Origin: Alphaproteobacteria bacterium
GTDB taxonomy: Bacteria; Pseudomonadota; Alphaproteobacteria; Rickettsiales; SXRF01
Direction: 5' to 3'
Assembly (NCBI GenBank): GCA_033763775.1
Contig: JANRJW010000005.1
Location: 9,230-73,229 of the forward strand
DNA length: 64,000 nucleotides
Made by a program: the position numbers and the translations under genes. The notes below the pieces were generated by a model that worked only from the letters and a program-made list of their open reading frames with translations, did not search any database and was not told the DNA's origin. Shown piece after piece: positions 579 through 48,239 of this stretch (position 1 is its first letter; each line of letters opens with the position of its first letter).

Positions 579-614
579 GCCCTCTGCCTCTGAGAGGGGG
601 GTAGGGTGAGGGCG
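579..614. repeat. Partial copy of the GGGTGAGGG palindromic element family
   Basis: GCCCTCTGCCTCTGAGAGGGGGGTAGGGTGAGGGC shares the CCCTCTGCC / GAGGGG / TAGGGTGAGGG words with the copies at 20987-21048 and 48176-48239. Confidence 0.4.
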
Positions 615-20079: not shown

Positions 20080-20349
20080 ATGTTTTACACGGTTATGAAA
20101 CGACCATTCTATGATAAAGCTGATCCAGTTGACGTAAATCAATATTTTAAACCCGCATCGCTAGTGAGGCAAAGTTACTTTGACCTTAAATCCGCTGTAG
20201 AAGAATTAAAAGAAAGCTTGGATAACGGCGATAGAGCGAGCGCTAGAAAAATTGCCAAACAAGTAGCATCGCTTGTCCAAGATATCCAAGATGAATTGGA
20301 ACCTAGGAGGGGGCGTTCAAGTGGGCGGGAAAGAAGCAGATCAAGGTAA
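20080..20349 (+). CDS. Orphan 89-aa protein with an Arg/Ser-rich tail
   Basis: Strong SD GGAGGA lies 6 nt before the ATG. The ORF is AT-rich and sits inside the repeat-flanked insertion. No recognisable family. Confidence 0.5.
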   Translation: MFYTVMKRPFYDKADPVDVNQYFKPASLVRQSYFDLKSAVEELKESLDNGDRASARKIAKQVASLVQDIQDELEPRRGRSSGRERSRSR

Positions 20350-20359
20350 ATAAATCGTG

Positions 20360-21622
20360 TTATCTCGCAAACACTGCCACAATCTCCAAATGCGGGCTGT
20401 AGACGAACTGGTCGATCGCTTGCGCTGAAATAAGGCTGAAACCTGCCTGTTTCAGGATTTTGGCGTCGCGGGCGAAGCTCGCCGGGTTGCAGGAAACCAT
20501 GACCACACGGGATAAAGTGGATTTGGCGATTTCTTCTACTTGCGCCTTGGCGCCCGGGCGCGGCGGGTTGATGACCGCTGCATCAAAGCGCGCAAGCTCA
20601 CCCGCGCGCAGCGGCGCCGCAAATAAATCCCGCGTTTCGGCGCTAAGGCTCGTGATGCCCAGCTTTTTGGCCTGCTGCTTTAAGTTATGAGCCATGGTTT
20701 TATCCAGCTCGGCGCCATGCACCAAGGCTTTCTGGCTGAGCGGAAAGCTGTAGGTGCCAATGCCGCAGAAAAGATCCACCACGCTTCTCGCGCCCGCGCA
20801 GCCCGCGAGCACCGCTTCCACCAGCAACTCCTGCCCCTTACGGCTTGCCTGCAGAAAGGCATCTGGCGGCAGGGGAATATCATGGTTGCCAAGGCGCATG
20901 GTGATGGGGGTACGTTCAAAAAGAATCTCGCCATCCTTTGATAGGCGAGAGATGTTAAGAGTTTCTGCGAGCGCCATCATCCATTGACCCTCACCCGCTC
21001 GCAGGCTCGCTTCCCTCTCCCTATAAGGCAGAGGGGTAGGGTGAGGGTGTGACGTCGTCAGCGCCATCTCAATGCCGCTATCGGCCGCGGTCAGGCGAAT
21101 GGTTTTGATGCTGGCGCCATGCTGCCATTGTTGCAGCGTTTTGGCGAGTGGCGCAAGCAGCGCCGCAAGCTGCGGCTCAAGAATCAGGCAGCTATCAATG
21201 GGTACGAGGCGACGCGTCCGCGAAGCATAATAGGCGAAGCGCTCGCCGTCCCATTTCAGCTCCACGCGCCGGCGCGAGGCTGCCGGAAGAAAGATGATAT
21301 CGAGCGGCGTATCGGCAAAACCGGCATGCGCTAGCGCATCTGCCGCCACTTTGCGCTTATGCGCCTGATAGGTGCTTGTGCTTAGATGCTGCAGGCTGCA
21401 ACCGCCGCATGATCCATAGTGCTGGCAGGGCGGGTTGATACGCGAATCACCAGCTTTGATAATCTCTTCAATCTCGCCGCGGGAAAATTCCCTGGTTTCC
21501 TGGATCAGCCGAATGCGCAGCACATCACCCGTGGCTGCTTTTTCAACAAACACGGGCTTGCCATCAAGCTGGCCGATGCCATCGCCGAGGCCGCCCAGTG
21601 AGTTGATGTGGAGTTCAGGCAA
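20360..21622 (-). CDS. TrmA/RumA-family 23S rRNA (uracil-C5)-methyltransferase
   Basis: TRAM-like N-terminus, Fe-S Cys cluster CQHYGSCGGCSLQH, SAM motif VVDLFCGIGTYSFPL and catalytic MVSCNPASFARD. Confidence 0.85.
   Translation of the reverse strand: MPELHINSLGGLGDGIGQLDGKPVFVEKAATGDVLRIRLIQETREFSRGEIEEIIKAGDSRINPPCQHYGSCGGCSLQHLSTSTYQAHKRKVAADALAHAGFADTPLDIIFLPAASRRRVELKWDGERFAYYASRTRRLVPIDSCLILEPQLAALLAPLAKTLQQWQHGASIKTIRLTAADSGIEMALTTSHPHPTPLPYREREASLRAGEGQWMMALAETLNISRLSKDGEILFERTPITMRLGNHDIPLPPDAFLQASRKGQELLVEAVLAGCAGARSVVDLFCGIGTYSFPLSQKALVHGAELDKTMAHNLKQQAKKLGITSLSAETRDLFAAPLRAGELARFDAAVINPPRPGAKAQVEEIAKSTLSRVVMVSCNPASFARDAKILKQAGFSLISAQAIDQFVYSPHLEIVAVFAR
20362..20394. repeat. Downstream copy of the 33-nt direct repeat (true 3' end of the rumA-like gene)
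   Basis: See 19877-19909. Confidence 0.65.
20987..21048. repeat. 62-bp GGGTGAGGG-family palindromic element lying inside the rumA-like CDS
   Basis: ACCCTCACCC (20987-20996) and GGGTGAGGGT (21039-21048) are perfect inverted termini, with an inner CCCTCTCCC/CAGAGGGG hairpin. The architecture matches the intergenic copy at 48176-48239. Confidence 0.75.
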
Positions 21623-48051: not shown

Positions 48052-48175
48052 GGAACTCCTCTTTTCAAGACGAACAAAGCGCACATCCTATAGAGCAAAC
48101 TACGTGCGGCGGCGAGTGAATTTTTTGTCATGGCGCTTAACAAAAAGTTAGACATATCATTTGGGTCGCAAGGCG

Positions 48176-48239
48176 ACCCTCACCCTAACCCTCTGCCTTA
48201 AAGGGAGAGGGGAGCGCGCTTAAGCGCGCGGGTGAGGGT
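48176..48239. repeat. 64-bp GGGTGAGGG-family palindromic element (intergenic copy)
   Basis: ACCCTCACCC (48176-48185) ... CCCTCTGCC TTAAA GGGAGAGGGG ... GGGTGAGGGT (48230-48239). The termini are the same as in the copy inside the rumA-like gene. Confidence 0.75.

Follow-up and report, generated by a model that had tools for sequence, protein, structure and literature searches.

A BoxC/PIT/TMECO repeat read in frame within rlmD of a Rickettsiales bacterium and its likeness to Rickettsia palindromic elements

In an alphaproteobacterium of the order Rickettsiales (assembly GCA_033763775.1), the gene rlmD (rumA), predicted to encode the 23S rRNA (uracil1939-C5)-methyltransferase RlmD, contains a 62-bp palindromic element that can be read in frame. 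The gene lies in a stretch of 64,000 nucleotides of contig JANRJW010000005.1, hereafter the window, and positions given without a contig handle refer to it. The element is best filed as a long form of the BoxC/PIT/TMECO repeat family that behaves like a Rickettsia palindromic element (RPE). We consider it probable (roughly 0.8) that it is a selfish structured repeat which is filtered for reading frame by selection and tolerated as a protein loop, in the manner of an RPE and with unrelated DNA. In-frame "coding palindromes" have so far been treated as a peculiarity of Rickettsia. The BoxC/PIT/TM repeats, in turn, have been described as strictly intergenic and have gone for about 30 years without a known function, origin or protein partner. 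Here a repeat of the BoxC family appears to be readable through essential genes on a large scale and to turn over between sister species.

The rlmD element and its repeat family

On the forward strand, the element (20987-21048, 62 bp) is composed of ACCCTCACCC-GCTCGCAGGCTCGC-TT-CCCTCTCCC-TATAA-GGCAGAGGG-GTA-GGGTGAGGGT. As proposed in the first-pass annotation of this DNA, it has perfect inverted termini and an inner hairpin. [quoted passage not shown] The inner hairpin A, CCCTCTCCC/GGCAGAGGG, is paired at 8/9 positions, and at 9/9 in the orthologue of G002, a species of the same genus (the host genome of the window is referred to as G000). The window has two instances of the pattern ACCCTCACCC-N30-60-GGGTGAGGGT, at 20987 and 48176, versus not one in 100 dinucleotide-preserving shuffles, and the 9-mer GGGTGAGGG occurs six times versus 0.24 expected. 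Folded as single-stranded DNA, both strands of the rlmD copy close into a junction made of the outer stem and the inner hairpin (-15.8 kcal/mol with z = -3.3, and -18.5 kcal/mol with z = -4.7). Folding is far better for the intergenic copy at 48176-48239 (-27.6 kcal/mol, z = -7.9), owing to a perfect hairpin B (GCGCGC-TTAA-GCGCGC); a perfect G+C-rich hairpin also occupies this position in other long-form copies. The two copies had been assigned to the same family and the same architecture. The family assignment holds, but the architecture differs, as the inner 44 bp of the intergenic copy are inverted relative to the rlmD copy. What had been taken for a partial copy at 579-614 is actually a complete solo core unit (580-612) and not a truncated long form. 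A known RNA family was rejected as an explanation, since Rfam at gathering thresholds returns only two tRNAs in the window.

The family was identified from the core of the element. The published TMECO consensus is CCCTCNCCC-N3-6-GGGNGAGGG-N3-GGGNGAGGG, with 23 copies in Escherichia coli MG1655 (Holder et al. 2015, PMC4666352). Positions 21013-21047 (CCCTCTCCC-TATAA-GGCAGAGGG-GTA-GGGTGAGGG) match this consensus with one mismatch, and the G002 orthologue matches it perfectly. A unit in the argJ gene of the host genome (C8:133542-133577) is base-for-base identical to TMECO no. 12 of MG1655. A blastn search with one core unit gave matches in 4532 out of 5426 complete genomes of E. coli, at a median of 9 places. 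The host genome (1.87 Mb in 14 contigs, 54.5% G+C, 100%-complete) was then searched with at most one mismatch allowed per stem and with the pattern read backwards as a control. It contains 45 strict-consensus units versus 3 for the reversed pattern, while exact core copies number 34 versus 0 for the control. Under a general triplex definition the census reaches about 64 units, and the earlier expectation of a family repeated genome-wide is borne out. The 9-mer GGGTGAGGG itself has 90 copies in the genome, most of them sitting in a unit of about 35 bp: CCCTCTCCC, a loop, GGGAGAGGG, 2-3 nucleotides and GGGTGAGGG.

The third segment of the unit mirrors the purine arm of the hairpin, which is a requirement for an intrastrand triplex with the class II purine-motif triplets G*G:C, A*A:T and T*A:T. 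Among 349 candidate hairpins, 137 have 9/9 compatible triplets, and the rlmD copy has 8/9. Over the G000 and G002 loci, units have on average 8.84 compatible triplets, versus 7.96 after re-pairing (the maximum of 1000 re-pairings was 8.14). Five subfamilies can be recognised by their purine arm and third segment, respectively: GGGAGAGGG and GGGTGAGGG (93 units), GGGAGAAGG and GGATGAGGG (23 units), GGGGGAGGG and GGGTGGGGG (7 units), GGGGGAGGA and AGGTGGGGG (5 units), and GGGGGGAGG and GGAGGGGGG (3 units). As judged from these sequences, the subfamilies covary three ways and keep the predicted triplex geometry.

In the long form, the core unit comes after ACCCTCACCC, which is complementary to the third segment, and a second hairpin position. 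The host genome contains 8 long-form copies with exact termini and a few more degenerate ones. In a scan of species-representative genomes, the same arrangement was found in more than 120 places across phyla, in taxa including Azospirillum, Sphingomonas, Chloroflexota, Dehalococcoidia and Burkholderiales. On sequence grounds, the rlmD element belongs to the BoxC/PIT/TMECO family, as its long form.

The host gene looks functional. Its open reading frame (ORF) of 420 codons matches TIGR00479 at 188 bits (cut-off 183.55) as well as PF05958, and can be aligned over its full length with RumA of E. coli (1uwv/2bh2). Every column that is invariant across 62 homologues is retained, including C66, C72, C75 and C145, which we take to be the RumA Fe-S ligands, C378, presumably the catalytic cysteine, and E413, which we match to a RumA residue. 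The element lies within the coding sequence without breaking the frame, as had been noted, and would be translated free of stops as HPHPTPLPYREREASLRAGEG (residues 191-211). An AlphaFold2 model built on the 62-homologue alignment has a mean predicted local distance difference test score (pLDDT) of 94.9 and a predicted TM-score (pTM) of 0.91, and superposes on RumA 1uwv/2bh2 with a TM-score of 0.84-0.86. Its sole pLDDT dip is at residues 191-210 (block means 74 and 74). In the model, a strand (184-190) is followed by coil (191-199), a short helix (200-207) and a native helix (211-221). Thus, the modelled insert occupies the strand-to-helix connection of the RumA-fold central domain. The first-pass annotation had placed it between the Fe-S/central region and the S-adenosylmethionine-binding domain, and this has to be corrected: it is predicted to lie inside the central domain, after strand 184-190. 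With the frame intact, the invariant residues kept and the model confident, the gene appears to encode a working enzyme, and we infer that the segment is translated and harmless.

Lineage distribution, in-frame copies and turnover

The distribution of the segment was examined in 24 rlmD orthologues from 40 related genomes and in 62 database homologues of RlmD, all alignments together covering about 85 orthologues. Among the genomes, the segment is present in G000 and G002 only (their RlmD proteins are 96% identical) and absent from the other 22 of 24. Among the database homologues, it is present in P0001, P0002 (95%) and P0003 only, and 59 of 62 are without it. At the segment site, two further congeneric species (56-58% identity) have 6-8 residues of unrelated sequence, and so have all other genera, outgroups included. 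The segment is lineage-specific, as anticipated: orthologues free of the palindrome are free of the peptide as well.

In the maximum-likelihood tree, ((P0001,P0002),(P0003,P0004)) with support of 96/95, the sister clade shows both states of the locus. P0003, from a metagenome relative (L153:340-1599), carries the same 62-bp element, 57/62 identical and at the identical codon position, but inverted relative to the gene and read as the different peptide HPHPLASSLPSPFKGEGQGEG. P0004 is 89% identical to P0003, lacks the element and has 24 unrelated bp instead, against 63 bp in rlmD of the host genome. Because this closest insert-free allele contains unrelated DNA, the "insertion" is really a replacement. 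The G000 and P0003 copies may go back either to one old event followed by a flip and a loss, or to two hits at one position. A two-state invertible switch was also considered and rejected, as in each lineage the host frame would run into a stop codon (TAG or TAA) if the element had the opposite orientation. In a third lineage, P0045, the same RlmD loop contains two related units of the CCCCTCCCC type, arranged as an inverted pair, in frame and of independent origin. This central-domain loop has thus been colonised more than once.

Units of the family are read in frame in many other genes of the host genome. Of 43 core units, 16 sit in frames that stay open for 60 codons or more to either side. 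Under the general triplex definition (63 units plus the rlmD unit), 30 units are ORF-spanned, lying in long open frames, about 24 of them in plausible genes. Homology or family models confirm 12 host genes besides rlmD, among them leuS, argJ, coaBC, gpmI, dnaX, thiL and hom. Ten hosts are confirmed by NCBIfam (LeuRS, homoserine dehydrogenase (HSDH), an RlmI-like protein, a PuuD-like amidotransferase, TrmJ, ThiL, ArgJ, DnaX, GpmI and CoaBC), several of the profile matches breaking exactly at the insert, and a Methyltransf_28 protein is confirmed by Pfam. This matters for genome annotation, in which such segments split hidden Markov model matches and may pass for frameshifts or low-complexity domains. 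A membrane-like host of 673 aa on C2 has no Pfam match and was counted as possible only. Three ORF-spanned units (C4:96262-97176, C4:130961-131605 and C8:23325-23708) were judged non-coding on account of implausible translations. Across genes there are three or more readings of the units (NPHPxPLPxRERG, (L)SPxGRGxGEG and TLTPTLSxKGRG); in LeuRS, the copy is of the long form and shares its orientation and frame with that of rlmD (HPHPTPLPDREREAAQSAAGEG). As a mode of working, then, the suggested resemblance to RPEs stands.

Many of these inserts differ between close relatives. The inserts of ArgJ (50 aa) and CoaBC (21 aa) are shared with G002 only; four other relatives lack them. Even G002, whose LeuRS is 93% identical, is without the LeuRS insert, leuS having 66 bp in G000 versus 24 bp in G002. 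Conversely, some G002 insert sites are empty in G000, for example those in a purH-like gene, in a hemF-like gene and at a second site of gpmI. The G002 genome contains 52 clusters, 25 of them ORF-spanned. For about 13 clusters, a unit can be recognised at the orthologous site of G000, with a flank identity of 91-99%, and at about 27 cluster sites G000 is shorter by 19-280 bp. The paired full and empty alleles of leuS, purH, hemF and gpmI constitute a natural system for the study of both loop-insertion tolerance in proteins and repeat movement.

X-drop mapping of the junctions revealed two classes. In the first, direct duplications of 2, 6, 7, 7, 11 and 30 bp border a number of intergenic inserts. 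In the second, 48-178 bp with the element stand in place of 15-100 unrelated bp without it. A target duplication of fixed length, as in MITEs, was not observed among the mapped junctions, and there is none at rlmD or at leuS, where 24 bp are replaced. Separately, in the G002 purH-like gene (L177; compared with G000 C14:149066-149196) about 11 codons beyond the G002-only insert are about half identical, the gene being otherwise about 95% identical.

At ORF sites, the length differences are all multiples of three (72, 90, 120, 84, 66, 51, 33, 57, 87, 78 and 126). Where a G002-only insert falls at a long open frame of G000, the frame is kept in 17 of 20 cases (binomial p = 3e-6, null 1/3). This test is independent of coding calls in the insert-bearing genome, and the three exceptions resemble spurious G000 ORFs. 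Such frame retention is predicted by selection on translated genes, and it argues against removal of the inserts at the RNA or protein level.

Mobilisation and competing readings

No match to the REP-associated tyrosine transposase (RAYT, a Y1 transposase, PF01797) was found in the 100%-complete host genome; in the control search, 6 out of 14 known genomes gave a match to the family. On this ground, a system of repetitive extragenic palindromes (REP) and RAYT was rejected. No transposase partner was found for the element ends either, the only gene located between such ends being DUF559, which is not a known transposase. DUF559 (PF04480, a Vsr-like nuclease) matches at two sites of the host genome, both in frame within genes (Table 1). 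The ends of both cassettes have the order hairpin, second hairpin, G-run, and are composed of poly-C/poly-G. On the gene strand, the rlmD element (hairpin A, hairpin B, GGGTGAGGGT) has the same order as these ends and as those of a cassette in Roseomonas genomospecies 6 (L070:81-1148). In the latter, ruvC and a DUF559 cassette form an in-frame fusion, RuvC and DUF559 both being confirmed by Pfam, and the cassette ends are long-form modules with ACCCTCACCC, hairpin B and hairpin A. Cassettes whose ends belong to exactly the sequence family of the rlmD element, arranged unit(+)-DUF559-unit(-), are present in two relatives belonging to the same family as the host (G021:C1 and G016:C2). The G021 cassette (L216, G021:C1:128800-129480) has CCCTCTCCC/GGGTGAGGG units at both ends and is flanked by a 24-bp direct repeat, TTGGCCGAYGCGGAGTAYAGRTRA, identical at 20/24 positions. 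Strong DUF559 matches occur in 10 of 11 relatives with an exact unit versus 10 of 30 without one (Fisher p = 0.0014), although this association is overstated because the relatives are non-independent and other subfamilies were left uncounted. The rlmD element is solo: no DUF559 ORF adjoins it, and the nearest PF04480 matches are on other contigs.

The following scenario probably accounts for the rlmD element. It is a copy of a non-coding, structure-forming BoxC/PIT/TMECO repeat, in which a hairpin is accompanied by a third segment mirroring its purine arm. The family would have multiplied recently in this lineage, landing anywhere, genes included, and the intragenic survivors would be those with a net length divisible by three, no stop codon and a tolerant loop as their site. 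In rlmD, about 6-8 loop residues between the strand and the helix of the central domain would have been replaced by a 21-residue loop of Pro, Gly and charged residues with a short helix, the enzyme presumably staying intact. Spread may depend on an enzyme acting in trans, for which the DUF559 nuclease, whose activity is predicted, is the best candidate. The junctions, with their duplications of 2-30 bp and replacements of 15-100 bp, resemble break repair or template switching more than classical transposition. A broader version of this scenario is possible, and we put it forward tentatively: BoxC/triplex repeats may be the ends and solo derivatives of a pan-bacterial, DUF559-driven cassette that spreads by break-and-repair or template switch, with variable duplications or flank replacement. 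A recent burst in this genus might then have rewritten the surface loops of dozens of essential proteins, the DNA being under selection or concerted evolution for triplex geometry.

Several observations weigh against a tolerated selfish repeat. First, the P0004 and outgroup alleles show neither a clean empty site nor a target duplication for the rlmD copy. Second, translation of the segment is deduced from the open frame alone. Coding calls elsewhere are likewise ORF-based, and homology confirms the 12 host genes only. Third, since the ends of the G000 cassettes are poly-C/poly-G and not CCCTCTCCC/GGGTGAGGG, no cognate autonomous copy was found in the genome. Finally, elements shared by G000 and G002 are identical at 1203/1233 sites (97.6%) versus 5489/5941 (92.4%) in their flanks (Fisher p = 3e-13). 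The repeat DNA is more constrained than the host genes, and such an excess is not predicted for a purely neutral passenger.

This excess would fit a function kept at the DNA or RNA level, with the peptide as a by-product. Theoretically, a triplex or cruciform could promote recombination or mutation, pause polymerases or ribosomes, or be the binding site of a protein such as DUF559. The three-way covariation in the five subfamilies is consistent with this possibility, as is the near-identity of the element in P0003, whose RlmD is only 68% identical. The flanks beside inserts are, moreover, unusually diverged or replaced, which fits the reported link of TM motifs with local instability (PMC4666352). 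However, the high conservation could equally come from recent spread or from gene conversion among copies. The small share of G002 clusters with a unit at the G000 site argues against a site-specific function, and the host genes and insert positions share no common theme. In addition, Holder et al. (2015, PMC4666352), together with earlier work cited there, report neither promoter or terminator activity nor a stable triplex in vivo. We consider such a function unlikely.

Alternatively, RlmD and the other hosts might have recruited the inserted peptide as a useful module, for instance through a new interaction or as a flexible surface loop. The RlmD peptide is indeed the same in G000 and G002, the sole DNA difference in the element being synonymous (CTG/CTC, Leu). 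The same RlmD loop has element-derived inserts in three lineages (P0001/P0002, P0003 and P0045), and AlphaFold2 gives the segment a short helix at a pLDDT of about 74 rather than disorder. But a recruited peptide should hardly be replaceable by the reading of the same DNA in the opposite orientation, as in P0003. Depending on the gene, the same units are also read in three or more frames, inserts are gained and lost between sister species, and most orthologues do without the RlmD segment; recruitment appears very improbable. That there was no insertion at all, and that we are dealing with an ancestral variable loop palindromic by chance, a pseudogene or an assembly artefact, can be dismissed: E. 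coli RumA has a similar number of residues in this region and the total length of RlmD is about that of its relatives, but the element DNA matches a multi-copy family to the base, is absent from the sister-clade member P0004 and the outgroups, occurs in two independent assemblies and one metagenome contig, and leaves the rlmD frame intact, with all invariant residues and a high-confidence model.

Comparison with known systems and further features

The units described here share with BoxC/PIT/TMECO, a motif of E. coli and other Proteobacteria, the sequence family, the presence in multiple copies on both strands, often as inverted pairs, a copy number sharply different between close relatives, and unusually variable loci. 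The E. coli copies are reported to be "always located intergenically" (Holder et al. 2015, PMC4666352), whereas here about 40% of the units are in frame within genes; in the literature searched, we found no report of coding copies. The long form seen in rlmD, with its second hairpin position and its 10-bp inverted termini, is undescribed in Holder et al. Those authors report no link to mobile elements, while in G000 and its relatives units end DUF559 cassettes.

RPEs (Ogata et al. 2000, 2002), as summarised in PMC10969869, are palindromic repeats located in frame in many unrelated housekeeping genes, in which they add fold-compatible peptide segments. They vary in presence among close relatives and are not known to have a transposase. 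The present units behave alike in all these respects. They are, however, only 35-65 bp long and G+C-rich and, judged by size, their DNA is unrelated to that of RPEs; a length of 62 bp versus about 150 bp for RPEs (PMC10969869) makes homology of the element to RPE families implausible. Further, the host (1.87 Mb, 54.5% G+C) is not a Rickettsia, the reading of the units uses several frames and both orientations and does not give one conserved peptide per family, and there are a triplex constraint and a candidate partner nuclease.

REPs and the bacterial interspersed mosaic elements (BIMEs) with their RAYT, and MITEs such as ERIC, Correia and the Coxiella QMITE, are likewise small, non-autonomous and hairpin-forming, with inverted termini, and have occasional intragenic copies as in-frame fusions (PMC10969869, PMC5896051). 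Unlike them, the present family has no RAYT, no known parent insertion sequence and no fixed-length target duplication. The DUF559 cassettes, like the rlmD element, are read in frame within genes, and on the gene strand the element equals one end module; unlike the cassettes, the rlmD copy has no nuclease gene. No account of DUF559 cassettes with BoxC-like ends was found in the literature searched. The features discussed are located in Table 1.

Table 1. Location of the rlmD element, its parts and related features (window positions unless a contig is named).
Feature	Position	Strand	Remarks
Host gene RlmD/RumA, 23S rRNA (uracil1939-C5)-methyltransferase, 420 aa, intact	20360..21622	-	profiles, alignment, model
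Long-form element, 62 bp	20987..21048	+ (canonical triplex-unit orientation; host gene on minus strand)	residues 191-211
Left terminus ACCCTCACCC	20987..20996	+	complement of third-strand segment
"Hairpin B" position GCTCGC-AG-GCTCGC	20997..21010	+	direct repeat, not inverted
Hairpin A: CCCTCTCCC, loop TATAA, GGCAGAGGG	21013..21035	+	8/9 paired
Right terminus GGGTGAGGGT	21039..21048	+	third-strand segment, mirrors purine arm; 8/9 allowed triplets
Intergenic long-form copy, 64 bp	48176..48239	-	between ybgC-like gene and tolQ
Solo core unit CCCTCTGCC-TCTGA-GAGGGGGG-TA-GGGTGAGGG	580..612	+	adjoins palindrome TTTCACGTGAAA (560-571)
DUF559 cassette	G000 C7:23619-23939 and C13:167124-167447 (L152, L151)		lipB-like gene; 1351-aa class-I aminoacyl-tRNA synthetase-like frame

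An extra hairpin, GGGTCGC-AAG-GCGACCC at 48163-48179, overlaps the end of the intergenic long-form copy of the window. One flank of the intergenic long forms at C8:45349, C8:46566, C13:29613 and C13:292186 has a hairpin GGGTCGC-N3-5-GCGACCC, and the opposite flank often has GATTKAATCATGC, which points to a composite element that is larger, at about 100 bp.

Adjoining the solo core unit is the palindrome TTTCACGTGAAA (usually AATGTTTCACGTGAAACATTT), of which the genome has 30 copies, in the window and in the regions of C3:151645, C6:25560, C8:134631, C12:4663 and C12:199429 among other places. Six copies lie at most 60 bp from a triplex unit. One G002 insert (L191) consists of a triplex unit and a second copy of this palindrome, which might act as an operator or belong to a composite element. 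Finally, a small ORF (20080-20349) is located just downstream of rlmD.

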